From Candidatus Nanopusillus sp. (GTDB lineage Archaea > Nanobdellota > Nanobdellia > Nanobdellales > Nanobdellaceae): a stretch of 32,000 nucleotides of DNA. Position 1 is the stretch's first letter, and each line of letters starts with the position of its first letter. The stretch spans positions 1 through 32,000 of the forward strand of contig JAWDOO010000002.1 of assembly GCA_046533775.1 (NCBI GenBank), in the 5' to 3' direction. The notes beneath the pieces were generated by a model. The model was not told the origin of the DNA, did not search any database, and was given only the letters and a program-made list of their open reading frames with translations. Positions 4,712 to 32,000 of the stretch are shown piece after piece. A program made the position numbers and the translations under genes.

Positions 4712-5101
4712 ATGAGAGAGAATGTTGAATTATGGTTAAAACAATCTTTAGAAGATTTAGATACAGCAAAAGTATTATTAAATAATAATAAATATTATGC
4801 TTCTGCATTTTATTCACATCAAGCAGCAGAAAAAGCTTTAAAAGCTTTATTATTGTATTTTGGAAAGGATGTAAAAACACATGATTTAAGTAAAATGCTA
4901 GATATAATTAAAGAAGAAGTAAATTTAAATGTTGAAGAAATAAGAAAAGAAGCTTTAAAATTAAATCCAAATTATACTATTTCTAGATATCCTGATGCAG
5001 CAAATAGTTTACCATATTTATTATATGATAAAGAAGATGCAGAAGAATATTTAAATATGGCCGAAAAAATTGTTAATTGGGTTAAGAAATTTATTAAATG
5101 A
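4712..5101 (+). CDS. HEPN domain protein (HEPN-MNT module 1)
   Basis: YASAFYSHQAAEKALKALLLYFGKDVKTHDLSKML is the classic HEPN (PF05168-type) helix pair, and SRYPD lies near the C-terminus. It overlaps the downstream nucleotidyltransferase gene by 4 nt (ATGA). Confidence 0.85.
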   Translation: MRENVELWLKQSLEDLDTAKVLLNNNKYYASAFYSHQAAEKALKALLLYFGKDVKTHDLSKMLDIIKEEVNLNVEEIRKEALKLNPNYTISRYPDAANSLPYLLYDKEDAEEYLNMAEKIVNWVKKFIK

Positions 5102-5454
5102 AAGCAAAATCTGCTATTGAAAGTCAGAAAGAATTACTAAAGAAGGCTATGGAAGTAATAAATAATATAAAAAAAGAAATTAATATAATTGATGTTTATG
5201 TCGTAGGTTCTAGAGCTAGAGGAGATTATTTAGATACAAGTGATTTAGATTTAGTGATAATATCAGATGACTTTAAAAATTTAAGATATATAGAAAGGTT
5301 AGAAAAATTATATAAATATTCTAAAGGAGATATTGAATTCTTTGCATTTACAAAAAAAGAATGGGATAATCCAAAAAGTTTATTTATAATTAATATGAAA
5401 AAAGAGGCAAAGAAATTAGAAGAATTGTTAAAATCATATGAAATAAATTTCTAA
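5098..5454 (+). CDS. Minimal nucleotidyltransferase (MNT) domain protein (HEPN-MNT module 1)
   Basis: VYVVGSRARGDYLDTSDLDLVIISD matches the GSxxRG...DxD polymerase-beta-type NTase signature. It is translationally coupled to the upstream HEPN gene. Confidence 0.85.
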   Translation: MKAKSAIESQKELLKKAMEVINNIKKEINIIDVYVVGSRARGDYLDTSDLDLVIISDDFKNLRYIERLEKLYKYSKGDIEFFAFTKKEWDNPKSLFIINMKKEAKKLEELLKSYEINF

Positions 5455-7520: not shown

Positions 7521-10079
7521 ATGTGGCATTCTTTACCTATTGAAGAGGTATTAAAAAAGTTAAATACATCAAATAAGGGTTTAGATGATTATGAAGCCGA
7601 AAGAAGATTAAAAATATATGGAGAAAATAAAATAATATTAGAAAAAAAGAATTTTATAGAAATTGTAATAGAATATTTAAAAAATCCTTTCTTATTATTA
7701 TTTCTTGTTGCAGATATATTATCCATTATTTTTGGTGGTATTACTGAAGGATCTGCAATAACATTATTTTTAATATTATATATAATATCAGATTATTTAC
7801 ATGATAAGAAATCTGAAAAAATAATAAAATCTCTAGAAGAAAATATAGAAAGTAATGTTTTAGTTATTAGAAATGGAAAATATAAATATGTAAAATCATC
7901 AAAAATTGTTCCAGGAGATATTATTATATTAAAATACGGACAGAGAGCTCCTGCAGATATAAGGATAATAGATTCAATTGATTTAGAAGTTGATGAAAGC
8001 TCTTTAACTGGTGAATCAGAACCTGTAAGAAAATATAATACAATATTACCAAAGGATATTCCAGTAAAAGAAAGAAAAAACATGATATTCCAGAATAGTT
8101 ATATAATAAAAGGAATTGCAATTGGTGTTGTAGTTGAAACTGGAAACAATACATATTATGGAAGTATATATAAAAATATAAGTAAACAAAGAAGGAATAA
8201 ATCTCTATTACAAGAAGAATTAGATAAATTTTCATATTATATGATAATAATTATATCAATAATTGTAATTATATCTTTTGTAATATTATTAATAAAAAAT
8301 ATACTAAATTTATACCAGCTAATAATATTTGTAATAGCTTTAGCTATTGTTGTAATACCTGAGGGATTGCCTGCAGCATTAGTATTAATATATACAATAA
8401 GCAGTCAAAAATTAGAAAGAGATAATATATATGTAAAAGATCCAAATATATTAGAAGATATTAGCAATATAGATACAGTTATTTTAGATAAAACAGGTAC
8501 AATTACATATAATGAATTAGTTATAAATAAATTTTTCTATAATGGTAAATTTTACAATGTAAAATATTATAAAGATAAGGCAGAAATAATTTATAATAAA
8601 AAAATAATAAATATAGATGAGGTAAAAGAATTTTTAATATTTTTATATAATTCAATAGAGGATTATTTAACAATAGATATAGAAAAAAATGTTGGAGATC
8701 CTATAAATTTATCAATATATAGATTGACAAAATATTTTAAGATTTCTAAATTTTTAGAAAGATATTCTGTAAATTATTTTGATCCATATAGAAAGAGATC
8801 TTCTGTAATAGTAAAATATAATGATAAGAAATTTGCAATAATAAAAGGATCTCCATCTTCCCTTCTATCTATTTCAAAATATATAATAATAAACAATAAA
8901 ATACTTAGAATAGATAAATATAGAGAAAAAATTGAAAAAATTGAAAAAGAATATGGAAAAAGAAGTTATAGAATATTGGCAATTGGTATTAAAGAAATAG
9001 AAGAAAATGAAGAACCAGAAAAAGATATAACATTCCTAGGATTATTATTTATAAAGGATAAAATAAGGAAGGGGGTTTTAAAATATATAAAAGAATTGGA
9101 AGATCTTGGTATAAATATATATATAGTAACTGGAGATAATAAAGATCATACCTTAGGAATATTGAAATTATTAAACTTAAATTATAAAATAATAGATGCA
9201 AATGAAATAAAAAAATTAAATGAAAATTATTTATACGATATATTAAAGGATTATCATGTTATAGTAAATGCAGATCCTTTAGATAAATATAGAATAGTAA
9301 AAACATTAAAAGATAAAGATCATAGAATATTATTTGTTGGGGATGGTACAAATGATGCTATAGCATTGAAGATATCAAATGTAGGTATTTCATTTTATAA
9401 TGCAACGGACATAGCAAAGGACTCTGCAAATGTTATATTAATGGATAAGGGAATAAATAATATAACAAAACTAATTATGGAAGGAAAAAGAATTATATAC
9501 AATCTAAAAGTATATATTTTAGTAATGTTATCAGAATTATTAGGAATATTTTTATTTATTTCAATTGGATTTTTTATATATAATCAGATATTTCTACAAG
9601 CTTTACAATTATTATTATTAAATTTAGTAATTGAAACAATTAATTCATTATACATGGGTTCATCAGATGTTAAAGATAAGAAAATGTTAAAAAAAATGAA
9701 GGTTAAAATATTTGATAGATCTACAAAATTAGAAATAATAAGAAATATGATATTTATTGGACTTACTTCTACAATTGTTGCTTTAGCTACAAATGATAAT
9801 AGCTATATAATAATATTATTCTTAATAGCAACACAGGGAATATTATATATACATTATGAAAAATTATTTTCATTAAATATAACAAAAACAAAGGAATATT
9901 ATATATCAATATTTCTATCTACATTTATAACATCCATATTTTTAATTGGATATTTAAGAAGAATTATTCAATTTATCATACCATCTTTAATTGATATATC
10001 AGTATTTGCGATAGTTTCATTATATTTCTTCTTTATATATTCAATAATAGAAAGGATAGAAAATGTCAGAGGTATCTGA
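7521..10079 (+). CDS. Cation-transporting P-type ATPase (P2-type features)
   Basis: The N-terminus is Cation_ATPase_N-like (LPIEEVLKKLNTSNKGLDDYEAERRLKIYGEN). It carries TGES, PEGLPA in TM4, the DKTGTIT phosphorylation site, TGDN and GDGTNDA. Confidence 0.9.
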   Translation: MWHSLPIEEVLKKLNTSNKGLDDYEAERRLKIYGENKIILEKKNFIEIVIEYLKNPFLLLFLVADILSIIFGGITEGSAITLFLILYIISDYLHDKKSEKIIKSLEENIESNVLVIRNGKYKYVKSSKIVPGDIIILKYGQRAPADIRIIDSIDLEVDESSLTGESEPVRKYNTILPKDIPVKERKNMIFQNSYIIKGIAIGVVVETGNNTYYGSIYKNISKQRRNKSLLQEELDKFSYYMIIIISIIVIISFVILLIKNILNLYQLIIFVIALAIVVIPEGLPAALVLIYTISSQKLERDNIYVKDPNILEDISNIDTVILDKTGTITYNELVINKFFYNGKFYNVKYYKDKAEIIYNKKIINIDEVKEFLIFLYNSIEDYLTIDIEKNVGDPINLSIYRLTKYFKISKFLERYSVNYFDPYRKRSSVIVKYNDKKFAIIKGSPSSLLSISKYIIINNKILRIDKYREKIEKIEKEYGKRSYRILAIGIKEIEENEEPEKDITFLGLLFIKDKIRKGVLKYIKELEDLGINIYIVTGDNKDHTLGILKLLNLNYKIIDANEIKKLNENYLYDILKDYHVIVNADPLDKYRIVKTLKDKDHRILFVGDGTNDAIALKISNVGISFYNATDIAKDSANVILMDKGINNITKLIMEGKRIIYNLKVYILVMLSELLGIFLFISIGFFIYNQIFLQALQLLLLNLVIETINSLYMGSSDVKDKKMLKKMKVKIFDRSTKLEIIRNMIFIGLTSTIVALATNDNSYIIILFLIATQGILYIHYEKLFSLNITKTKEYYISIFLSTFITSIFLIGYLRRIIQFIIPSLIDISVFAIVSLYFFFIYSIIERIENVRGI

Positions 10080-10122
10080 ATTTCATCATCTATCAGCTAA
10101 CTCTGACCTTCATCACTATTTT
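10060..10122 (-). ncRNA. C/D box sRNA (2'-O-methylation guide)
   Basis: The minus strand reads aaaata-GTGATGA(C)-aggtcagagttag-CTGA(D')-tag-ATGATGA(C')-aattcagatacct-CTGA(D)-catttt. All four boxes are canonical. There are two 13-nt guide spacers, a 3-nt D'-C' loop and a 51-nt core at 10066..10116. The flanks can form a short A-U terminal stem. The 3' part is antisense to the last 14 nt of the ATPase CDS. Confidence 0.8.
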
Positions 10123-10151
10123 TAATAATATTAATATTAAATATAATTTTT

Positions 10152-11279
10152 ATGGATCTTCCTAAAATATCAATTATATTTCCTATTTATAAAAAAAGTA
10201 AATATTTAAAAAATAATATTCAAAAAATATTAGAAGATCCCTATCCAAATGATCTAAAAGAAATAATAATATCAATAGACTCTCCAGAAGACGATTTCTT
10301 AAATAAATTAATAGAACTAAAAAATAAATATAAAAATATAACATTGATTATATCAAAAGAAAGAAGGGGAAAAGTTTCTGCAACTAATGATGCAGTAAAA
10401 ATATCTTCTGGAGAAATTTTATTTTTCTTTGATTCAGATGTTATTATCGATTATATCAATATAAAAGGGATTATTAATGAATTAAAAGAATATGATATGG
10501 TAGAATTCTATAAAGAAATAATTAAAAAAGGCTGGCTTGGTTATCTTATGTTCATAGAATTTTCTTCATATTTTGATATTATTGATCCAATATTAAATAA
10601 AACAAAAAGACCCTTATTCTTAAATGGTAGTGGATTTGCAACTAAAAAAAATGTATGGAATGATGTGGGGGGGTATTCTAAAGTATATGTAGAAGATGTA
10701 GACTTTGCTATAAAAGCTGGAAAAAAAGGATATAAATATCATATGTCAAAAAATGTAAAATTACTAATTGAACCATTAAAAGGTTTAAGGCAATGGATTG
10801 ATCAAAGGAAAAGATGGGGTTTTGGAGTAATAGAAGTAATACTAAATCATCTAGATTATATAGTAGATTTATTTATTCGCAATATGTTAACCTCTATATT
10901 GATACTTCTAATTTTATATTTACCATACATAATATGGACTTATATATATATTTACTTACCAGCCTCTTTCTTATATCAGGTTGCTATAAATATATATGAA
11001 AATCTATCTAAAAATATTAGTTTTATATACTTAATAATATTAAATCCCACATCTATTTTCAAAGTATTTTACATTCTATACCTAACTTTATTATATATAA
11101 TAACAACATCTTCTTATATATACTTATTACTTTCAATAAAAAGGAGAAAGTTTTATAATTTTCTTCCATTTATATTGTTTTCAATATTATATATACCATT
11201 ATATGAAATTATCATAATATATGATATAATATATTATGGAATATTTGAAAGGGCTCCAAAGATGAATTGGAAGGTTTAA
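10152..11279 (+). CDS. Family 2 glycosyltransferase, processive-type (D, DxD, ED, Q(R)xRW motifs) with a C-terminal multi-TM region
   Basis: The N-terminal GT-A start is ISIIFPIYKKSKYL, followed by IISIDSPED, FFFDSDVI, VYVEDVDFAIKA and QRKRWGFG. The last ~140 aa are strongly hydrophobic. Confidence 0.8.
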   Translation: MDLPKISIIFPIYKKSKYLKNNIQKILEDPYPNDLKEIIISIDSPEDDFLNKLIELKNKYKNITLIISKERRGKVSATNDAVKISSGEILFFFDSDVIIDYINIKGIINELKEYDMVEFYKEIIKKGWLGYLMFIEFSSYFDIIDPILNKTKRPLFLNGSGFATKKNVWNDVGGYSKVYVEDVDFAIKAGKKGYKYHMSKNVKLLIEPLKGLRQWIDQRKRWGFGVIEVILNHLDYIVDLFIRNMLTSILILLILYLPYIIWTYIYIYLPASFLYQVAINIYENLSKNISFIYLIILNPTSIFKVFYILYLTLLYIITTSSYIYLLLSIKRRKFYNFLPFILFSILYIPLYEIIIIYDIIYYGIFERAPKMNWKV

Positions 11280-12262
11280 TGATGAAAAAAATAACAATAT
11301 TAGGAACTACATCATCAATGCCTACTAAAAGTAGAAATCATCCTGGAATATTTATAAAATTTAATAAGAAAGGAATTTTACTAGATTGCGGAGAAAATAT
11401 ACAAAGACAATTAAGAATAATGAAAATCTCACCAACAGATATAGATTATATATTAATTACACATTGGCATGGAGATCATGTTCTAGGATTACCAGGTATT
11501 TTTCAAAGTTTATCTAGCATGAATTATAATAAAAAATTAAATATAATAATTCCAAAAGAAAATATAGAAAATTTAAAAAGAATAATTGAAGATTTTATTA
11601 TTCCAATAAACTTTGATATAAATATAATAGAAGCAAGAGAGGGTTTAATAGTTGATGAAGAAGATTTCCAAATATATGGAATAAAAACAAAACATTCCAT
11701 AATATCTTATTCATATTATATTATAGAAAAAAATTATATTAAACTAGATAAAGATCTTATAAATAAATATAATATAAAAGATAAAGAATTAATTAAAAAA
11801 TTAAAAGAAGGAAAAGAAATAAAAATAAATGGCAAAACAATATCTTATAAAGATGTAGGATATATAAAGAGGGGAATTAAAATTACATATATTACTGATA
11901 CAATATTTTTTGATAAATTGATTGATTTTGCAAAAGATAGTACAATATTAATATCTGAATCTACATATTTCTTCCAACCAGATCTGGCAAAGAAAAATAT
12001 GCATATGGATTTTTTAGAAGTTAGAGAGATGTTTAATAGAAGTAATAGCAAGATATTATTATTAACACATTTTAGCCAAAGATATGAAGAAGAAATGGAA
12101 AATATAAGGAAAGATATTGAAGAAAAAAATGAAAATATTTATATATTGGACGACTTTGATGAAATATATATATATAAAGATAAAATAGAATTAAAATTAA
12201 AGGGGAAGAGAATTATTTATAAATATGATGAAAAAACTGGAAATATATTAAGACTCAATTAA
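11279..12262 (+). CDS. rnz: Ribonuclease Z (tRNA 3' endonuclease, metallo-beta-lactamase fold)
   Basis: KITILGTTSSMPTKSRNHPGIFI, LLDCGENIQRQL and ILITHWHGDHVLGLPG (HxHxDH) are present. The tracked ORF starts at a TTG at 11267. ATG at 11279 (MMKKITILG), overlapping the GT2 stop by 1 nt, is the more likely start. Confidence 0.85.
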   Translation: MMKKITILGTTSSMPTKSRNHPGIFIKFNKKGILLDCGENIQRQLRIMKISPTDIDYILITHWHGDHVLGLPGIFQSLSSMNYNKKLNIIIPKENIENLKRIIEDFIIPINFDINIIEAREGLIVDEEDFQIYGIKTKHSIISYSYYIIEKNYIKLDKDLINKYNIKDKELIKKLKEGKEIKINGKTISYKDVGYIKRGIKITYITDTIFFDKLIDFAKDSTILISESTYFFQPDLAKKNMHMDFLEVREMFNRSNSKILLLTHFSQRYEEEMENIRKDIEEKNENIYILDDFDEIYIYKDKIELKLKGKRIIYKYDEKTGNILRLN

Positions 12263-19459: not shown

Positions 19460-20302
19460 TTACTTTAAATATTTAATTAGTTCATTTAGATTTTTTAGAT
19501 AATTTTCTACTGTTTTTTTATTATATTTTATTCTTAAATCAATTTCAAAGTAATATATATTTTTATTGTTTATATTTATAGTTTCTTCATCTTTTAAACT
19601 TAAATTATAAGCATTATATTTTATTGCATATCTTTTAATTATATTAAAATTCTGTTCTATTATTTTTCTCGCCCAACGAAGATATTCTATATACTCAGAA
19701 TAAAAATAAATTTTTCCATAAAGATTAATTTTATCTATCTCTCCAATTAAGCCAAATTTTTGTGTCCTCTCTAATAAATATTGATATAACATTAATTGAC
19801 TTGAATTTATTTTTATTTTATCAAGAACTTTTTTAATTAAAACATAATCCTTTAATTCTTTTACATACTGGATAAAGCCAGTAAGATTAAAAGATTTTAC
19901 TTCAAAAATCTTTGCTTTATTATTCATATTACCTTCAAAACTTAATCCATCAGGCTCTCCAGCTATTAATATAGGATATCTATTATAGTATTCAATTGAT
20001 ATTAAATAATATCTCTTAGATTTTGTTGTTAATCTTAAAATTTTTTCAAAAAGACTTGCAAATTCTTTATTCTTATAATTCCAATGATATTCTTCAAATA
20101 TATTACTTCCTTTTTTATTGTATTTTTCAATAAGAAAAACTGTAGCTAATACAGGTATATTTTCATATTTCTTTTTTATATTATTTTTTAAAAAATCTTC
20201 TAATTTCTTTTGATATAAACTATCATAATTAGGATTATTCATTTTTATTTTTACGCTTTCTATTAAATTATCTAATGTTGTTACTATATAATAACCATAC
20301 AT
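19460..20302 (-). CDS. PD-(D/E)XK (Cas4/RecB-like) nuclease superfamily protein lacking the Cys cluster
   Basis: The motifs occur in canonical order: ILIAGEPDGLSF (GxxD), KIFEVKS (ExK) and SSQLMLYQYLL (QxxxY). The tracked ORF runs to 20407, but its first 35 codons overlap tRNA-Ser. The start is therefore reassigned to ATG at 20302 (MYGYYIV...), which has a TATA-like box at about -28 to -21. Confidence 0.55.
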   Translation of the reverse strand: MYGYYIVTTLDNLIESVKIKMNNPNYDSLYQKKLEDFLKNNIKKKYENIPVLATVFLIEKYNKKGSNIFEEYHWNYKNKEFASLFEKILRLTTKSKRYYLISIEYYNRYPILIAGEPDGLSFEGNMNNKAKIFEVKSFNLTGFIQYVKELKDYVLIKKVLDKIKINSSQLMLYQYLLERTQKFGLIGEIDKINLYGKIYFYSEYIEYLRWARKIIEQNFNIIKRYAIKYNAYNLSLKDEETININNKNIYYFEIDLRIKYNKKTVENYLKNLNELIKYLK

Positions 20303-20337
20303 AATTGTAGTAATAATTATAATTTTATAAAAATAAA

Positions 20338-20421
20338 CGCCGCGGGTGGGATTTGAACCCACGTCCCCTTTCGGGGAATGGATTAGCAATCCATCCCCTT
20401 GGGCCACTCGGGCACCGCGGC
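20338..20421 (-). tRNA. tRNA-Ser (anticodon GCU), class II with a long variable arm
   Basis: Folded by hand from GCCGCGG-TG-CCC-GAGTGGCCCAA-GGG-G-ATGGA-TTGCTAA-TCCAT-T-CCCCGAAAGGGG-AC-GTGGG-TTCAAAT-CCCAC-CCGCGGC-G. The anticodon loop is TT-GCT-AA and the discriminator is G. No CCA is encoded and there is no intron. Confidence 0.93.
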
Positions 20422-20444
20422 ATATTAAATTTTTTAAAAATTAC

Positions 20445-25067: not shown

Positions 25068-25412
25068 TTAATATTCTTCATATTTATCAATAAATTTTGA
25101 ATACCAATTTTTATATTCTTCTTCTGATATTATATGTAATTCTATAGGATCTTCTATACCTAATTTTTTATATATTTTCGCAGCAATTTCTGCTCTTTCA
25201 AAATTATCCTTAATATTTAGTAATATTATTAATACATCTATATCACTATCGATTCTATAATTTCCCTTAACAATTGACCCAAATAATATCACTCTACAGT
25301 TTTTATCTATTTCATTAATACAAATTTCTTTAATTCTTTTAACATATTCTCTTGCATTTTTTAATATTTTAATTCTTTCTTCCCACTTATTTTTAAAGTA
25401 TTCCAAGTACAT
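25068..25412 (-). CDS. Minimal nucleotidyltransferase (MNT) domain protein (HEPN-MNT module 2)
   Basis: RVILFGSIVKGNYRIDSDIDVLIIL matches the GSxxxG...DxD NTase signature. It overlaps the upstream HEPN gene by 20 nt. Confidence 0.85.
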   Translation of the reverse strand: MYLEYFKNKWEERIKILKNAREYVKRIKEICINEIDKNCRVILFGSIVKGNYRIDSDIDVLIILLNIKDNFERAEIAAKIYKKLGIEDPIELHIISEEEYKNWYSKFIDKYEEY

Positions 25413-25764
25413 TTAATATATTTTTAACTACTCGATAAGCCTTTTCTGCAGATTTTTTATCATATGTAAATGGTAAATATCTTGAAGAAATATATACTTG
25501 TTTTATTAAATCTAAAGTGATGTATTCCATATCCATTATTTCTTTTAATTTATTATCTTTCATTAATTCAGTAACTTTATTTAATAATAAAATAATAATA
25601 TCATGTGTTTTATCATATGTTCCAGTTAGTTCATATAATTTATATTTTAAACCTAATTGTAATGCCTGTTCTAAATGAAACATGGCTAAATTATATTTTC
25701 CTTCATTTAAATTTCTTTCTCCTTCTTTAAAGAAGTCTATTGAATTATTTTTAAGGAAATCCAT
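25393..25764 (-). CDS. HEPN domain protein (HEPN-MNT module 2)
   Basis: YNLAMFHLEQALQLGLKYKLYELTGTYDKTHDIIILL and SSRYLPFTYD parallel the module 1 HEPN motifs. The gene order is the same, with HEPN first and then MNT. Confidence 0.8.
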   Translation of the reverse strand: MDFLKNNSIDFFKEGERNLNEGKYNLAMFHLEQALQLGLKYKLYELTGTYDKTHDIIILLLNKVTELMKDNKLKEIMDMEYITLDLIKQVYISSRYLPFTYDKKSAEKAYRVVKNILNVLGIL

Positions 25765-25977: not shown

Positions 25978-25998
25978 TACTACTATAATATAGTAGTA
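25978..25998. promoter_or_regulatory. Perfect 10+1+10 bp palindrome TACTACTATA-A-TATAGTAGTA ending on the A of the ORF-A start codon (candidate operator)
   Basis: It lies between the TATA-like box (ttttaaaa, 25967-25974) and ATG 25998, over the expected transcription start of a leaderless mRNA. The core TACTAT-NN-TATAGTA recurs at 30405-30419 upstream of a paralogous gene. Confidence 0.35.
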
Positions 25999-27008
25999 TG
26001 AGTAAGTTATATGAAGAATATAAATGGTCAGAATTAGTAAATGATGAAGTAAGAAAATATAATGGTAGTATAATAAAGGGATCTCTTTTAGATGGATTCT
26101 TAGAACTTGCTAAGGAAAAGAAAGAGAGAGATCCAACAGTATATATAATAGATCGCTCTCTACTAAGAGAAATTGTAAAATGTGCTTTAACTGATGGATA
26201 TAAAATACAAGACCAACAAGCTAGATTAGAATACTGTGTTGATAAACATTATCCTGAACTACCAGCAGATATTAAAGGTATATTAAAAAGCATTTCTGAG
26301 GATGGTATACCACAAGAAAAAATTTACCTAGATAAAATACTACAAATGGATCCAAAATCTTTAGAAGACTTTATAGATCTATATACACAAAATATTGCTA
26401 CAGCATATACTTTTTCTCCCGAACCAATAAGAATAATGATAATAAAAGATGACTTATTTCCCAAATCCGACCCTTCACTTGCAACAATTATACATGAGTA
26501 TATTCATTCAACAAATAAAGACAATTATGATATTCGGCCAAAGATTGAATCTATAATAAATAAGGTAGTTGATAAGTATATAAAACCTCATGATCCTAGT
26601 TATGAAGAATACTATAATAAGAAAAAGAAAAATTCGATTTTAGATTGGATTTTAAACCTTGAAACTATAGCAGAACTAGCAACAATATATATATTGCAAG
26701 ATTCTAACTTAATAGAGCCATTTATAAATAGGAAAGAATTCTTAGAAGAAAAATTAGATCAAATTAAACAACTAAAAGAAAAAACTGGAATTTCTAAAAT
26801 TCCAAGAGAAGATAGAATCCTTGCTTATTTGATAGGATATTATATATTTGAACAAAGAGATAAAAATGATGATATAAGAGAAATATCGGGAAAGATTAAT
26901 AAGATCATAGAAGATGTCTTAAGATCATATATTGAAGGGGAACTAAAAAAAAATAATTTCAAAACGAAAATATTTATAAAAATCATTAATAGTAAACTAT
27001 CACAATAA
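25998..27008 (+). CDS. Orphan HExxH protein A (putative zincin/MA-clan or M78-like metallopeptidase fold)
   Basis: HEYIH sits at codons 166-170 (nt 26493-26507). It is preceded by TAYTFSPEPIRIMIIKDD and followed later by ILAYLIGYYIF. Both flanking motifs have counterparts in ORFs 29560..30318 and 30420..31268. Confidence 0.5.
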   Translation: MSKLYEEYKWSELVNDEVRKYNGSIIKGSLLDGFLELAKEKKERDPTVYIIDRSLLREIVKCALTDGYKIQDQQARLEYCVDKHYPELPADIKGILKSISEDGIPQEKIYLDKILQMDPKSLEDFIDLYTQNIATAYTFSPEPIRIMIIKDDLFPKSDPSLATIIHEYIHSTNKDNYDIRPKIESIINKVVDKYIKPHDPSYEEYYNKKKKNSILDWILNLETIAELATIYILQDSNLIEPFINRKEFLEEKLDQIKQLKEKTGISKIPREDRILAYLIGYYIFEQRDKNDDIREISGKINKIIEDVLRSYIEGELKKNNFKTKIFIKIINSKLSQ

Positions 27009-27223
27009 TGTTATCTAATAAAGTAAGATATCATAACAATTTAATTAAATATTATGAATACAAAAAGAATAAATAAATAAGTTTGATAGATACTATTATT
27101 ATTGATTTATATCTTTTAGTTAAATTGAATATAATCTTTTAATACGATACAACAATCACGCATTAAGATATAATATATCTATAATAAAAGCTAAAAATAT
27201 CATAAAATATTTATATAAATTGC

Positions 27224-28654
27224 CTATCCGCTCATCTTTTCTACTTTTTTCTTAAAATTAATAAGAATCCACTTATAATATGTACCTTCATGTGAAAAAT
27301 AATCGCACCAAGCTCCAATTTTTCCTATATTATCTTTAATGTGGAATAATCTATATGCAAGAATCGTCGATAAATAACTAGATTTATCAAATTTATTTGT
27401 TTCTTCAATAGCATCTAATATTTTTGTAATTAATCTTCTTTTCTTTCCATATTTTTTAACTATATGGTCTAAAAGTCTTATCAGATAATCCAAAGTTAAA
27501 CTATATTTACTTATTATGCCTTTATATATTTCTTCCAATATTTTAGAATCAGTTATAAGTTCATAAGGATCTCTTTTATTTAATTCATTTTCCAAATATT
27601 CTAAATCTTTTTCAGAATTTATCAATCTATATAATCTAAAAGAAACAAATTGAGGATAATATTTTAATATATTTGGATATTTTGTAAATAAATCTTTTCC
27701 CATTAAATTTATAACATTGTATAATCTATCATAATCTATAAAATTATACTTTTTGTTCTTTGTATGAATTATTATATATCTAACAATTCTTCCTCCTTTA
27801 TTTATTAACTGATTAAATATTTCCAATTTTATTTCTTGATTTATTTTTTCATTAAAATATATATTTTCAAAGTATTTTGTTAAAATAAATAATAGATCTT
27901 TTGCTTCTATTTTTTCAAAGTTTACATTATTTATAAGATCAATAATTGAAGGATCTCTAGTAACTTGATTTAAAAATGATTTTAAATTGTCTTCATTTTG
28001 TACTTTATAATATAAACCATTGGAAGAAAATATATTTAATAATTTTACAAATTTTTCCTTTGGAATTTTATCTTTTAATTCTATTATAATATATGGTCTT
28101 CCACTAAAACTTCCAATAACTTTTATTATAAAATCTTTTGCTATTTTAATATCTATATCTTTATCAACAATTAAGTTTAGACTATCAGATAAAGCCTCAT
28201 AAATAGTAATCTTTAATTTATATTTCTCTTTTATTAAATATTCTAATATTTCTAATAAAACATTTATTCTTTCATCGTTCAAATTCTCTATATTTTTTCC
28301 AATAGTTTTTATTATAAATGTTGTAGATATTTGAAATATTTCTTCATATTTTATTAACATACTTATCAAATCTTCTAAAATTTTTCCACCGAATCTTTCT
28401 TTAATTAAATAAATATAAGTTAAGAATTCTTTTGGAATATATAAAATAGTTTTTTCCTTAACTAACCATTGAAAATATTCAATCAACTTATCATTATTAA
28501 TTATTTCTTCAATAGATTTTTCACCCCTTAATTTTAGTAGATAATCTATATTTTCTTGAACAATTTTTTTCATTTTTTCTATATCTAAATTATCATAAAC
28601 TTCAGGATATCTGCCTTTTGTTATTTTACTTAAAAATTCTTCATAGTATTCCAT
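27224..28654 (-). CDS. Large orphan helical protein (476 aa), function unknown
   Basis: This long uninterrupted ORF is significant in a stop-rich AT genome. There is no Walker or other catalytic motif. An internal duplicated segment is visible (FIIKTIGKNI / FIIKVIGSFSG). An inverted repeat TAGTATT-CCAT-AATACTA (28644-28661) spans its start codon. Confidence 0.6.
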   Translation of the reverse strand: MEYYEEFLSKITKGRYPEVYDNLDIEKMKKIVQENIDYLLKLRGEKSIEEIINNDKLIEYFQWLVKEKTILYIPKEFLTYIYLIKERFGGKILEDLISMLIKYEEIFQISTTFIIKTIGKNIENLNDERINVLLEILEYLIKEKYKLKITIYEALSDSLNLIVDKDIDIKIAKDFIIKVIGSFSGRPYIIIELKDKIPKEKFVKLLNIFSSNGLYYKVQNEDNLKSFLNQVTRDPSIIDLINNVNFEKIEAKDLLFILTKYFENIYFNEKINQEIKLEIFNQLINKGGRIVRYIIIHTKNKKYNFIDYDRLYNVINLMGKDLFTKYPNILKYYPQFVSFRLYRLINSEKDLEYLENELNKRDPYELITDSKILEEIYKGIISKYSLTLDYLIRLLDHIVKKYGKKRRLITKILDAIEETNKFDKSSYLSTILAYRLFHIKDNIGKIGAWCDYFSHEGTYYKWILINFKKKVEKMSG

Positions 28655-28671
28655 AATACTAATATTTAATT

Positions 28672-28818
28672 TTAAATTTTAACCTTTTTAGAAAATATTA
28701 GAACAAAGAACTTGGTTTTCAAATATAATAGCACCCAAATTATTAATATTATTAAAAGATTTATTACACGATAACATACATTTATCATGATTATTAATTT
28801 TTTACGTAAATCTTTCAT
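28672..28818 (-). CDS. Possible 48-aa single-TM micro-protein upstream of the 476-aa orphan
   Basis: The untracked ORF reads MKDLRKKLIIMINVCYRVINLLIILIIWVLLYLKTKFFVLIFSKKVKI*. It ends 17 nt before the 476-aa gene start on the same strand. A stop-free run of 48 codons is uncommon in this composition, but there is no other support. Confidence 0.25.
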   Translation of the reverse strand: MKDLRKKLIIMINVCYRVINLLIILIIWVLLYLKTKFFVLIFSKKVKI

Positions 28819-28854
28819 AGAAATTTTATGAATGTATACAATTAATAAACAATT

Positions 28855-29079
28855 ATGTCTACAGTCATTAGCGTTAGGATAAAAGAAGAAATAAAAGAAG
28901 AATTAGAAAAACATGGAATAGATATTAGTCAAGAAGTAAGAAAATTTTTAGAAGAACTTTATATAAAGGTCAAGGCTAAAGAGTATGTAAATAAATGGAT
29001 TGAAGAATTAAAAGATATTAAACCTAGTGAAGAAGGTTTCTCTACAAAATCTGTGAGAGAAGACCGTGAGAGTCATTGA
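28855..29079 (+). CDS. vapB: VapB-type antitoxin (ribbon-helix-helix/CopG-like N-terminus, toxin-binding tail)
   Basis: VISVRIKEEIKEELEKHGIDISQEVRKFLEEL fits a strand-helix-helix layout. The C-terminal SVREDRESH tail is typical of archaeal VapB. It overlaps the downstream PIN reading frame by 14 nt. A palindrome TGTATACA lies in its promoter region. Confidence 0.7.
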   Translation: MSTVISVRIKEEIKEELEKHGIDISQEVRKFLEELYIKVKAKEYVNKWIEELKDIKPSEEGFSTKSVREDRESH

Positions 29080-29461
29080 TTCATCTTCCTTAGTAAAATT
29101 TTTCTCTAAAGAAGAAGGTTGGGAAAAGGTAGCTCAAATAATAGAAGAAGAGGTTATAACTTTAGATTTATCAATAAAAGAAATTGCCAATGTTTTATAG
29201 AAAAAGATTCTTATGGGAGAAATGAAAGAAGACATTGCAATTAAAATAATTTATGACCTATTAAAAAATGAAGCTATAATAATTGTAAACCAAGATGACT
29301 ACTTAATTGAAGCATTTAAAATTGCTAATAGGAATAAAATAACTATTTATGACTCTTTGTTCATTGCATTAGCTAAATCAAGGAACTTTGAGTTAGTAAC
29401 ATCTGATAAAAAACAATATGAAATTACAAAAAATGGAGGAATAAATGCTCAATTGATATAA
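29066..29461 (+). pseudogene. vapC: PIN-domain toxin VapC interrupted by one in-frame TAG (29198-29200)
   Basis: From GTG 29066 the frame reads MRVIDSSSLVKFFSKEEGWEKVAQIIEEEVITLDLSIKEIANVL*KKILMGEMKEDIA...ITIYDSLFIALAKSRNFELVTSDKKQYEITKNGGINAQLI. All PIN acidic positions are present (D5, E16/17, YD, TSD). The stop sits where PIN proteins have the conserved Trp (N.LWKK), so TGG to TAG is the likely change. The tracked ORF 29213..29461 is only the C-terminal part. Confidence 0.75.
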
Positions 29462-29559
29462 GGAAACATTAATTAAAATTATAAATTTTATTATATCTAT
29501 AAAATTTAGACATAAAATATTAAAAATTTATAAAATTTTATTTTAATTATTACTCAATA

Positions 29560-30318
29560 ATGTCAGAGGATATGTACAGTTTAAATCTTTTTATAAAAAA
29601 TAGTTTTGATGAAGCTATAAACTATCTTAGTAAAATTGGTATAAAAATTGAAGGACTAAAATTAAAAATAGTAGATTTATCAGAGTCTTTTAATTTATTA
29701 CAGGATATATATGGTAATTTATTAGAAAATATATATGGAATTGGCGGAATATATGCTTCAAAAACAAGAGAAATCAGTATTATAAAAAATGTATTAAAGG
29801 GATTTATAAATCGAGAATTAAACAATCCAAATAAAATTTTTATTGGTAATCTATTTACTATAACACACAACAGTATACTATACCCAATATATAAAAATGA
29901 TAATGATATAGAAAAAGTTATAGCAAAAGCTGTTGTTGATCCAATAGTGATTCATGAAATTGGACATGATATAATTGGTCAAGGTAATTGGAGAACTTGT
30001 ATTTTTGAATTTTTAGTATATTTCTATAAAAACGAGTTATATAAATATCCAGAGGTATATAAAATTATGGAACAAAATATAGAAATATGTAAAAGACACC
30101 TACAAGAAAAAAATCCACGACCTACTACTTTAGGAGCATGTTTTGCAAATGATTTTATATATACTTATGAAAATTTATTAAATAAAGATAAACAATCACC
30201 AAAACTAAATATAAAAGATATAATAGAAAAACTCAAATATTTCTCTGAAGATGAGTATATAGATGCAACCAAAATGATTAATACATTAACTAAAATTCTA
30301 ATGTTATTATATAAATAA
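29560..30318 (+). CDS. Orphan HExxH protein B (paralogue of A and C)
   Basis: HEIGH sits at codons 132-136 (nt 29953-29967). LKLKIVDLSES...IGGIYASKTREISIIKN parallels C (KLKILESKSLIAGEYSPSKNQIIISKK). C-terminal TLGACFANDFIYTY parallels C (DLGLCYGNIIVAKY). Confidence 0.5.
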   Translation: MSEDMYSLNLFIKNSFDEAINYLSKIGIKIEGLKLKIVDLSESFNLLQDIYGNLLENIYGIGGIYASKTREISIIKNVLKGFINRELNNPNKIFIGNLFTITHNSILYPIYKNDNDIEKVIAKAVVDPIVIHEIGHDIIGQGNWRTCIFEFLVYFYKNELYKYPEVYKIMEQNIEICKRHLQEKNPRPTTLGACFANDFIYTYENLLNKDKQSPKLNIKDIIEKLKYFSEDEYIDATKMINTLTKILMLLYK

Positions 30319-30403
30319 TATTTAGGCTAGATTAAAACTTTAAGACAATAAAACATATTTTTTAATTATTTATTTAGAATGATAAAGGTTTATAAATTTT
30401 ACG

Positions 30404-30420
30404 TTACTATTGTATAGTAA
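30404..30420. promoter_or_regulatory. Inverted repeat TTACTAT-TGT-ATAGTAA ending on the A of the ORF-C start codon (candidate operator, same core as at 25978-25998)
   Basis: It lies between the TATA box (tttataaatt, 30389-30398) and ATG 30420. 13 of 15 positions match the ORF-A element (TACTAT-NN-TATAGTA). Confidence 0.35.
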
Positions 30421-31268
30421 TGAATAATTCACTAGATAAAATTATAGAAGATGAGTTTAAAAAGTTTATTGAAAATCTACGAAAATTTCATATAATAGAA
30501 TATATAGAAAGTAACTATAAAATAAAATTTACAGAACCGAAATTAAAAATATTAGAAAGTAAATCTTTAATTGCTGGAGAGTATTCACCATCTAAAAATC
30601 AAATTATTATTTCAAAAAAATCCATTGAAAGATTGACAAATAGTCAATTAAAATTTTTAGGTTATAAAGAAATAGAAATATCTATTATTGATATACAACA
30701 TATAGAATATTTAAATATACCATATAAATCATATAAATCAACGTTCGTATATCCATTATATATAAAGAAGAGGAATATAATAGAAACTATAAAAGAATTC
30801 TTTATTCATTTGGCAATGTCTCATGAAGGTTGGCATGCTATTGATCAAATCATCTTAAATAAGTTGGCCGAGGATCCTACTATTAAAGATAGGGGCTATC
30901 TTCTTACCATTTTAAATAATCATGATAATCTTGAATTGAGAGCTTCTGTTTTTCAATTTATAGATTATTATTTAGCAAAAGGTTTTCATAAGGATGAAAG
31001 AGGATATATAGCTGCATATTTTAATATACCTACATGTATCGACTATATTAAAGAATTAGCTGAATTAGAAAAAAATAAATATAAGAGTAAACTTGTTCCT
31101 TACGATTTGGGACTTTGTTATGGAAATATTATTGTAGCTAAATATAGATCGTCATTAGAGAAAAATATATATAAAGTAATAGATGATATCATACATTTAG
31201 ATAAAGAAAAGGCTATAGATGTAATTAAAAATTATGTATATAATCCTGATAAGTTATTACATGATTGA
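30420..31268 (+). CDS. Orphan HExxH protein C (paralogue of A and B)
   Basis: HEGWH sits at codons 135-139 (nt 30822-30836). It shares the N-terminal G-x-Y-x-x-S-K-x-x-I-x-I-x-K and C-terminal G-x-C-[FY]-[AG]-N motifs with ORF B. CpG is enriched, with 8 in 849 nt. Confidence 0.5.
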   Translation: MNNSLDKIIEDEFKKFIENLRKFHIIEYIESNYKIKFTEPKLKILESKSLIAGEYSPSKNQIIISKKSIERLTNSQLKFLGYKEIEISIIDIQHIEYLNIPYKSYKSTFVYPLYIKKRNIIETIKEFFIHLAMSHEGWHAIDQIILNKLAEDPTIKDRGYLLTILNNHDNLELRASVFQFIDYYLAKGFHKDERGYIAAYFNIPTCIDYIKELAELEKNKYKSKLVPYDLGLCYGNIIVAKYRSSLEKNIYKVIDDIIHLDKEKAIDVIKNYVYNPDKLLHD

Positions 31269-31562
31269 ACATAGGCATCTGTACATATAAGTGGGTATTA
31301 TGAAGCTTCAATTTTTTATTTAATAATTAACCTTGCTTAACCTTATTAAAATTTATATCAAAAATTATTTCAAAATATGCACTTACCCCTTAAGGCCCAT
31401 GTCGCATAACCAAGATTATCCGTCATCTACATAGATGTCTACATATCTTATCTAATAAAATTTAAGATATTATATAATAAATTAGGCTAGGTTATACATT
31501 ACAAAATTTTATTGAAGTTATATTATGATCATTTATAAACGTTTCTATATAATTACTACTAA

Positions 31563-32000
31563 ATGAGTGATACTGTCTCTCAGCCTACTGAAACACATCG
31601 AAAACCTCTTTATATAATTATAGATGAAAGAACACCTGAGGATGATAAACAGAAAGTTATAATTAACCTAGAAATTTTACTTAGAAGATACGAAAGAGAG
31701 GCAGGGGTTTCAATAACAAGACAGTATTATTATAGACCATGGTGTGAAAATCCGGACCAACCTTACTGTCGTCCTCAATATTATATTGAAAATTGTAGAG
31801 ATTCTAATGGTAAAATAAATGTTGACTGCATATTTAATCTTAGTAGAAACGAACCTTGGCAACAAACAAACCCACATTATGATATATACATAATAGATAA
31901 GGACATAATTTATGATGGTAATCCATCTACTAACTTTTTATTTGGATCTACATTACCAGCAATTTTACCAAGTGGATATATATATCTTGGTTTTGCAGGT
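31563..32000 (+). CDS. Cys-containing hypothetical protein, 3' end truncated by the window edge (possible archaemetzincin-like N-terminal region)
   Basis: This is not in the ORF track because it has no stop. ATG 31563 opens 146 stop-free codons to the window end (MSDTVSQPTETHRKPLYIIIDERTPEDDKQKVIINLEILLRRYEREAGVSITRQYYYRPWCENPDQPYCRPQYYIENCRDSNGKINVDC...DIYIIDKDIIYDGNPSTNFLFGSTLPAILPSGYIYLGFAG). A TATA box atttataaac lies at -32 to -23. DKDIIYDG....NFLFGS resembles the D-I/L-Y...G.NFVFG segment of M54 archaemetzincins, but the catalytic region would lie beyond the window. Confidence 0.55.
   Translation, partial: MSDTVSQPTETHRKPLYIIIDERTPEDDKQKVIINLEILLRRYEREAGVSITRQYYYRPWCENPDQPYCRPQYYIENCRDSNGKINVDCIFNLSRNEPWQQTNPHYDIYIIDKDIIYDGNPSTNFLFGSTLPAILPSGYIYLGFAG

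Follow-up and report, generated by a model that had tools for sequence, protein, structure and literature searches.

Two clade-restricted families of HExxH proteins in a variable, toxin–antitoxin-bearing region of a Candidatus Nanopusillus genome

Three genes near the end of a 32,000-nt stretch of DNA from a metagenome-assembled genome of Candidatus Nanopusillus sp. (contig JAWDOO010000002.1, positions 1 to 32,000; hereafter the window) encode proteins, named O1, O2 and O3 here, that each carry a single HExxH motif. Our analysis suggests that O1 on the one hand and the pair O2/O3 on the other represent two new clade-restricted families of cytoplasmic HExxH proteins that resemble zinc metallopeptidases and are encoded in a variable region of the conflict type, a reading to which we assign a probability of about 45%. 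The original prediction, made from the letters of the window, had described the three as divergent orphan paralogues in an island that also held a 476-aa orphan, addiction modules and a truncated metallopeptidase-like gene. The finding is real. It is more structured than the word "orphans" implies and less unified than was proposed, as the region holds the paralogous pair O2/O3, the unrelated O1, an archaemetzincin-like gene, the 476-aa protein O476 and two toxin–antitoxin (TA) modules, one of which is decayed.

Members of Nanopusillus and related archaea live as obligate ectosymbionts and have genomes of ~0.6 Mb; N. acidilobi can be cultured together with its host. To our knowledge, very little has been established about how these archaea handle hosts and viruses. 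The window is very AT-rich archaeal DNA (GC content 19–31%). The products of O1, O2 and O3 are 100% identical to the NCBI proteins RXQ68_00890, RXQ68_00910 and RXQ68_00915, all encoded on one 103-kb contig. Throughout, L001–L033 denote related loci from other genomes and P-numbers denote homologous proteins. A1, A2 and A3 are the family alignments of O3, O2 and O1, respectively.

Results

Conservation of the HExxH motif

Histidine makes up 1.05% of the residues in the inferred proteins of the window, and 0.084 HExxH motifs are expected in all 9,430 residues encoded by its genes. We observed three, one each in O1, O2 and O3 and none elsewhere, in the three plus-strand open reading frames (ORFs) that had been predicted. 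The motif is found in 292 of 297 full-length homologues (108/108 in the O3 family, 122/127 in the O2 family and 62/62 in the O1 family) and is retained though overall identity drops to 40–60%. A glutamate downstream of the motif is likewise conserved within each family, namely E150 in O2, E172 in O3 and E222/E226 in O1; E150 lies 14 residues past the second histidine of the motif, on the next helix. Conservation of HExxH and of a third-ligand Glu among homologues had been proposed as a check of the original prediction; HExxH is conserved as proposed, and these glutamates are candidates for the third ligand. In the O1 family H166, E167, H170, E222 and E226 are invariant, as is T135. Further invariant residues are E150, W144, N173, C177, G192 and C194 in O2, and E172, R174 and A175 in O3. 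According to alignments A1, A2 and A3 and the models of O1 and O2, the family-conserved HExxH lies inside an α-helix, as in peptidases of clan MA.

The three proteins are not strictly orphans, having 60–230 homologue clusters each (66 for O1, 229 for O2 and 112 for O3). The named homologues come from Nanopusillus, Nanobsidianus or "Nanoarchaeota archaeon", and the others are metagenomic. When 1.84 billion cluster representatives were searched exhaustively with the combined O2 and O3 profile, only 40 sequences were found. A scan over species-representative genomes detected eight loci, all in Nanopusillus or Nanobsidianus and several per genome, in agreement with the predicted lineage specificity. 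We found no description of either family in the literature. The automatic names attached to the homologues P0239, P0241, P0013, P0019 and P0024, among them "Txe/YoeB family toxin", "uncharacterized protein YqgQ" and "ribosome assembly protein YihI", are mutually inconsistent and at odds with our profile scans of O1, O3 and a sample of family members, and look spurious.

O2 and O3 are paralogues and O1 forms a separate family

O2 and O3 share 21% identity in a BLASTP comparison (E 8e-5), and their profiles align over 212 columns with a probability of 99.4% (hhalign of A1 against A2, E 8e-22). In this alignment the HExxH motif and two helices, "RAS-AFE" next to it and "LGxC[YF]xN" further on, are in register, and O3 contains ~25 additional residues after HExxH relative to O2. 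In O2 numbering, Y65, K76, G192, C194 and N197 show no or almost no variation in 76 sequences from both families. By these comparisons O2 and O3 are true, diverged paralogues.

O1 proved to be different. BLASTP found no similarity between O1 and O2/O3, and hhalign returned a probability of 0.4–1.5% with only the motif or a hairpin aligned, so that of the three proposed paralogues only O2 and O3 stand as such. The two accessory collinear motifs reported alongside HExxH fared in the same way. They are conserved in the 76 O2/O3 sequences, but the corresponding residues of O1 are variable among its homologues: neither the Tyr of TAYTF nor the Lys of IIK is fixed, and ILAYLIG has no equivalent of the G, C and N. 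In O1 the accessory motifs are apparently coincidental similarities superimposed on a β-hairpin. The downstream motifs had also been listed in a scrambled order, LGACFANDFI belonging to O2, LGLCYGNIIV to O3 and ILAYLIGYYI to O1. Judged from profiles, O1 is a family separate from O2/O3, with the motif alone in common. We considered a common origin of O1, O2/O3 and the archaemetzincin-like family and rejected it as undemonstrated, since hhalign aligned just 13–19 residues around HExxH.

A third subfamily of O2/O3 was noticed at a second locus in Nanobsidianus and Nanopusillus genomes. Its members (272–340 aa, with HEMGH, HEEGH or HEEEH; L003 1312..2130, L005 8905..9927 and L006 8912..9916) are encoded in tandem, directly upstream of an O2-like gene. 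Some proteins of the O3 family (for example P0006, P0010, P0034, P0035 and P0095–P0111) are length variants in alignment A1, of two types. One type carries a tandem duplication of a ~60-aa strand–helix unit around the conserved Tyr, and the other has short repeats of the LDIDNILN type right after HExxH; both places are especially prone to changes in length. In three distant O2/O3 representatives (P0304, P0309 and P0326) the soluble helices that separate the first strand from the conserved-Tyr strand give way to borderline hydrophobic segments, and some distant members of the family may be anchored in the membrane.

Predicted structures and a possible catalytic site

Structures of O1 and O2 were modelled with AlphaFold2 from the family alignments. 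The model of O2 (predicted local distance difference test (pLDDT) 89.2, predicted template modelling score (pTM) 0.89) begins with helix 8–25, followed by strands 34–38, 63–66, 71–75, 98–103 and 106–111. Helix 117–139 bears HEIGH, helix 143–157 bears E150, and four further helices come after. The model of O1 (pLDDT 86.2, pTM 0.86) contains strands 5–9, 47–52, 136–139 and 145–150, with a β-hairpin spanning 136–150. HEYIH is located on helix 160–172, which is followed by a long helical domain, and E222/E226 lie on helix 213–235. No segment of O1, O2, O3 or O476 exceeds the hydropathy threshold for a membrane helix.

If these proteins are zinc enzymes, they would be soluble, cytoplasmic zincins of a gluzincin-like type. 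The two histidines of HExxH on the "active-site helix" and the conserved glutamate on a following helix would hold the zinc ion, the glutamate of the motif would activate a water molecule, and the β-strand just upstream of HExxH would line the substrate cleft. Peptidase function, which we infer from the motif and the modelled topology, has about even odds in our estimation.

Rapid divergence of the HExxH proteins

The window was compared with syntenic loci of related genomes. Ratios of nonsynonymous to synonymous substitution rates (dN/dS) were obtained by the Nei–Gojobori method, which is crude in a genome of 22% GC, and the flanking genes served as internal controls. The housekeeping neighbours (PGI, isochorismatase, ABC transporter and methyltransferase) are 92–98% identical to their counterparts, and identity is 92–95% for the nucleotidyltransferase (NTase) and HEPN proteins, 88–99% for VapB and 78–92% for O476. 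The HExxH proteins reach only 42–76% (O1), 51–87% (O2) and 53–59% (O3), which bears out the fast divergence that had been predicted. The flanking genes have a dN/dS of 0.05–0.2, O476 of 0.17–0.55, O2 of 0.28–0.51, O1 of 0.62–0.68 and O3 of 0.99–1.24 (bootstrap 95% confidence interval 0.68–2.1). The 10–20-fold contrast in rate with the flanks is robust. O3 is the fastest-evolving gene of the region, with windows over residues 21–80 that reach a dN/dS of 3.5–4.6, while its dS of 0.19–0.23 equals that of the flanks. O1 and O2 are present as deep allelic lineages. In their most divergent pairs dS is 0.55–0.66. This value, 2–3 times that of the flanks, speaks for alleles that separated long ago, or for exchange between paralogues, and not for acceleration alone.

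A putative catalytic core of O1 and O2/O3 would thus appear fixed while the remaining protein diversifies fast, which is what recognition of a fast-changing target would lead one to expect. One such target could lie in the crenarchaeal host (Acidilobus or Sulfolobales), with O1 and O2/O3 delivered into or onto it as effectors and an arms race driving their diversification. Both families are confined to obligate ectosymbionts that keep several copies per ~0.6-Mb genome, and a dN/dS of ~1 or above with invariant core residues would fit such a role. We also count in its favour a single-cell study that found a higher density of nonsynonymous single-nucleotide polymorphisms in hypothetical proteins of Nanoarchaeota, including predicted surface-exposed ones (PMC6142677). 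Yet the proteins of the window have no hydrophobic N-terminal or internal segment, no secretion-related gene is found nearby, and only a few distant members show possible membrane hairpins. We regard delivery to the host as quite unlikely.

Another hypervariable hypothetical gene lies outside the region, at 19460..20407 on the minus strand, and has no Pfam match. It is 51–73% identical to its orthologues, compared with 87–98% for its neighbours, and its pairwise dN/dS is 0.96–1.5. The gene adjoins tRNA-Ser (20337..20422, minus strand), and its true start must lie further downstream because the listed GTG start overlaps the tRNA.

Gene neighbourhood and TA modules

The gene layout of the region is given in Table 1. 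The 476-aa ORF on the minus strand, VapB, the broken VapC and the truncated ORF from 31563 were all found as predicted.

Table 1 Features of the region in window coordinates
Feature	Coordinates	Strand	Evidence and remarks
MNT-type minimal nucleotidyltransferase (NTase)	25068..25412	-	Pfam NTP_transf_2 1.2e-10; 92–95% identity in L010, L012, L014
HEPN domain protein	25393..25764	-	Pfam HEPN 2.8e-24; 93–94% identity in L010, L012, L014
O1, 336-aa HExxH protein	25998..27008	+	HEYIH 166–170
O476, 476-aa protein	27224..28654	-	Convergent with O1
VapB antitoxin	28855..29079	+	NCBIfam NF050799 TA_anti_VapB_Sulfo 7.6e-20
VapC (PIN) pseudogene	29066..29461	+	GTG start 29066; Pfam PIN 1.3e-8 on C-terminal part
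O2, 252-aa HExxH protein	29560..30318	+	HEIGH 132–136
O3, 282-aa HExxH protein	30420..31268	+	HEGWH 135–139; paralogue of O2
Divergent archaemetzincin-like gene, 5' part, 146 codons	31563..32000	+	Window ends before its HExxH

Two blocks recur in related genomes, so that the conserved neighbourhoods sought as a check of the original prediction do exist. The first consists of MNT/HEPN (-), O1 (+) and O476 (-) and occurs in the window, L010/L011, L012 and L014/L015. Its HEPN and NTase genes overlap by 20 nt (25393..25412), as expected for a HEPN/MNT module, and HEPN is transcribed divergently from O1. The pair O1–O476 is also present in L002 and L013, so that O476 adjoins O1 in the window, L002, L010/L011 (where O476 is split), L012, L013, L014 and L015. 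The outer flanks differ among the loci of this block, and L014 has an additional 208-aa gene between HEPN and O1. O476 has no match in Pfam, NCBIfam, PADLOC, PHROGs or the PDB. The second block is VapB-VapC-O2-(O3), followed by the archaemetzincin-like gene on the same strand, and it was found in the window, L001, L004, L010/L011, L023, L025–L027 and L030–L033. VapB scores 71.3 bits against NF050799 (curated cut-off 60). A single in-frame stop codon (TAG, 29198..29200) interrupts VapC; the intact 131-aa orthologue of L001 has TGG (Trp) at this position. The VapBC module of the window is a VapB gene with a VapC pseudogene in place of an intact overlapping PIN toxin.

The content of these blocks varies by strain, and VapC, O2, O3 and O476 are repeatedly pseudogenised: four haplotypes carry a broken or stub VapC, two a split O2 and one a split O3. 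In L001 the ABC transporter leads directly to VapBC-O2, and MNT/HEPN, O1, O476 and O3 are missing. L004 retains only stubs of NTase and O476 and has a split O2, and in L010 a CTP synthase gene is inserted and O476 is split. VapC has been lost in several ways, by the nonsense codon in the window, as 57–61-aa stubs in L010/L011 (13265..13438) and L032/L033 (1695..), and entirely in L025; VapB remains intact in these strains, at 88–99% identity. VapC was thus inactivated independently in several strains, and the pattern suggests an antitoxin that was kept when its toxin was lost. In L012 a serpin gene (10034..11404, minus strand) follows VapBC in the slot held by O2 in the window, which places a protease inhibitor in the same variable slot as the putative proteases.

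This neighbourhood raises the possibility that the HExxH proteins regulate the TA modules in the manner of ImmA/IrrE. O1 would then serve MNT/HEPN and O2/O3 would serve VapBC, and cleavage of the antitoxin or of a repressor, for instance, would free the toxin. O1 is transcribed divergently from HEPN/MNT and adjoins it or lies near it in the window, L010/L011, L012 and L014/L015, and in eight of nine haplotypes at the locus VapB-VapC immediately precedes O2 on the same strand. The association is however not obligatory. O2-family genes occur without VapBC in L002, L003, L005 and L006, VapBC occurs without O2 in L012, the second O1 paralogue of L012 has no adjacent HEPN/MNT, and O2 is intact in strains with a broken or stub VapC. 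Moreover, the TA genes are 88–99% identical where the HExxH genes are 42–87% identical, and coevolving partners are not expected to differ so much. No M78/ImmA profile matched and no Xre-type partner was found, and the genomes are all close relatives, so the synteny may be inherited. The functional link to TA modules suggested in the original prediction is not required by these data, and we consider this role very unlikely. Our reading of the variable, decay-prone segment is that of a region of conflict, in defence or in interaction with the host, and not of a single operon or system.

The region does not stand out in composition. A compositional island was ruled out, as the GC content of 19–27% is the same as in the remainder of the window. 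No mobile-element genes or viral matches were found for the region, and an origin from a provirus or mobile element was rejected because relatives of O1, O2/O3 and O476 were not found on viral contigs. A second HEPN/MNT pair (4712..5101 and 5098..5454, both plus strand, with a 4-nt overlap) is located in the window ~20 kb from the first; the Pfam E-values are 8.5e-34 for HEPN and 1e-10 for NTP_transf_2.

The last ORF belongs to a divergent archaemetzincin-like family

The 146-codon fragment at the end of the window had been likened to archaemetzincins, and its orthologues support this likeness. The fragment on its own had no significant match in Pfam, NCBIfam, PADLOC or PHROGs. Full-length orthologues of 267–268 aa share 82–87% identity with it, and a 255-aa homologue is encoded in L012. 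Beyond the point where the window ends, the orthologues continue with AAHELGHLFGLP[ND], ~21 residues, NHCSYEYCAM, ~29 residues and a single Cys, which gives the motif HELGHLFGLPN-x21-HCSYEYCAM. The gene lies on the same strand downstream of O2/O3 in L023, L026, L027 and L030–L033. NCBIfam archmetzin (NF033823) was the top match for four of five homologues tested, with an E-value of 3e-8 (33.8 bits, cut-off 145) for L012 and 0.02–0.08 for three others, all far below the cut-off. Pfam gave weak Reprolysin/M10 matches only and no M54 match, and the family profile (A6) retrieved no AmzA match among PDB sequences.

The published archaemetzincin signature is HEXXHXXGXXHCX4CXMX17CXXC (PMC3427221). 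Like archaemetzincins (M54, AmzA), the family of the last ORF has HExxHxxG and then H-C-x4-C-x-M. Unlike M54, it inserts ~21–24 residues between G-L-P and H-C and, in place of the final CxxC, has only one conserved Cys, ~29 residues past the Met, so that the contiguous signature is absent from the orthologues. These features support a divergent archaemetzincin-like protein and not a regular member of M54. Comparison of this family with O1 and with O2/O3 by hhalign left HExxH only in common. In the archaemetzincin-like genes of L029/L030 QALGY replaces HExxH. The family weakly resembles mitochondrial ribosomal protein bS21 over residues ~34–91 (E 0.004 in a search of PDB sequences), around a stretch rich in Cys, Tyr and Arg, and this resemblance is probably due to chance.

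Discussion

Several observations weigh against the proposed reading, beginning with the searches. O1, O2 and O3 have no significant match in Pfam, NCBIfam, PADLOC or PHROGs, the profiles A1, A2 and A3 retrieved no relevant match from all PDB sequences, and PADLOC recognised neither the three HExxH proteins nor O476 nor the archaemetzincin-like fragment as a known defence protein. Foldseek searches of the PDB with the models of O1 and O2 gave no match at E <= 0.001, and the list for O1 consists of generic helical bundles, essentially without zincins. Five O2-family proteins and two distant representatives lack HExxH and are otherwise intact, and because the motif has been lost from some intact members, catalysis is not needed in every member of the family, as far as sequence can tell. 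The substituted motifs in the O2 family are YEIGY, REIGH, DEIGY, HGISH and GYVLS (P0171, P0198, P0224, P0309 and P0311). The position of the third ligand also varies: the column of E150 holds Gln in O3 of the window and in the third subfamily, the column of E172 holds Asn in O2 of the window, and no single acidic position after HExxH is common to all O2/O3 subfamilies. The conserved gene order is weak evidence of functional linkage because every comparison falls inside one narrow clade. Finally, relaxed constraint would likewise give a dN/dS of ~1.

Some weaker signals in the searches speak for the proposed reading. When 76 O2/O3 and 26 O1 members were scanned against Pfam one by one, only sub-threshold matches (E 0.008–0.17) to one or two members each appeared, among them Zincin_1 (0.066) and DUF2268 (0.075) for O2/O3 and MPTase-PolyVal (0.008) and M41 (0.17) for O1. 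Peptidase_M78 was absent from the complete list for the O1 family and from the 25 most frequent of the 70 Pfam families matched by O2/O3 members. The affinity to ImmA/IrrE (M78) or another MA-clan family raised in the original prediction did not materialise, as no profile matched at a meaningful level. The non-significant Foldseek list of O2 is topped by anthrax lethal factor (E 0.6) and also holds the M1 aminopeptidase IRAP (TM 0.42, probability 0.35) and DPP III, all HExxH enzymes. A search of BFVD with the O1 model found nothing. The suggestion of a zincin-like fold agrees with the order of elements in the models, but no structural neighbour of O1 or O2 is significant.

O1 and O2/O3 could on this evidence be non-catalytic, either with HExxH as a structural or metal-binding remnant in a pseudo-peptidase, adaptor or scaffold, or as genes drifting to loss in a shrinking genome. 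The lack of significant similarity to any enzyme, the intact members without HExxH, the dN/dS of ~1 for O3 and the split copies of O2, O3 and O476 in several strains would all be accommodated. HExxH-less members of the O2 and archaemetzincin-like families are possible pseudo-enzymes. For the families as a whole, however, 98% of members retain both histidines and the glutamate although His accounts for just 1% of the proteome and most other positions vary, a pattern typical of an active site, and hundreds of full-length intact variants exist. We therefore judge a non-catalytic role rather unlikely and continue to favour metallopeptidase-like proteins.

A bolder version of this preferred reading would be that O1 and O2/O3 are unseen HExxH metalloenzyme folds, invented or radically remodelled in terrestrial Nanoarchaeota, and that they provide "recognition plus cleavage" as the variable component in an arms race. 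In one form, the proteases would enter the crenarchaeal host and manipulate it; in another, they would be sensors or effectors that cleave viral or TA proteins. Both forms would place diversifying selection on the N-terminal α/β region (residues 21–80 of O3) lining the substrate cleft. We think this improbable as it stands.

The families are of interest because both are unannotated and maintained in several copies by so small a genome, with a putative active site that is fixed. Given this fixed site and a diversification 10–20 times faster than that of the neighbours, they qualify as good candidates for factors in conflict or interaction. They would extend the zincin world beyond what present profile libraries detect. 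If they are inactive or decaying, the region still documents the erosion of TA-rich variable segments in reduced archaeal genomes.

Comparison with known systems

The comparison group for O1 and O2/O3 is the gluzincins and minimal zincins, that is, domains of the thermolysin/M1 type, the Zincin_1/Acel_2062 "mini-zincins" and the minigluzincins. The predicted order in O1 and O2 of N-terminal helix, mixed sheet, HExxH helix and conserved-Glu helix is like that of clan MA zincins. The minimal zincin scaffold has a three-stranded sheet, compared with five strands in many zincins (PMC3890501). Five strands are predicted for O2 and four for O1. Unlike zincins, O1 and O2 have large C-terminal helical domains without counterpart, and O2/O3 insert 50–70 residues between the conserved-Tyr strand and HExxH. 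The third-ligand position of O1 and O2/O3 is not fixed over subfamilies, no sequence or Foldseek match is significant, and the families are confined to one nanoarchaeal clade.

Like ImmA/IrrE (M78), O1 and O2/O3 are small soluble HExxH proteins beside addiction or regulatory modules. The distance from strand to HExxH in O1 is short, ~15 residues, as is typical of such minimal zincins. Unlike ImmA/IrrE, their neighbours are VapBC and MNT/HEPN, there is no Xre/HTH (HTH_3; helix-turn-helix) partner, and the association is not obligatory.

The region as a whole invites comparison with TA-rich defence or conflict islands. Unlike these, it has no PADLOC defence protein among its unknown genes, and shows no deviation in base composition, mobile-element genes or viral matches. 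Like them, it has two TA modules (HEPN/MNT and VapBC) within 4 kb, neighbours that are present or absent by strain, frequent pseudogenes, and fast-evolving genes between the TA modules.

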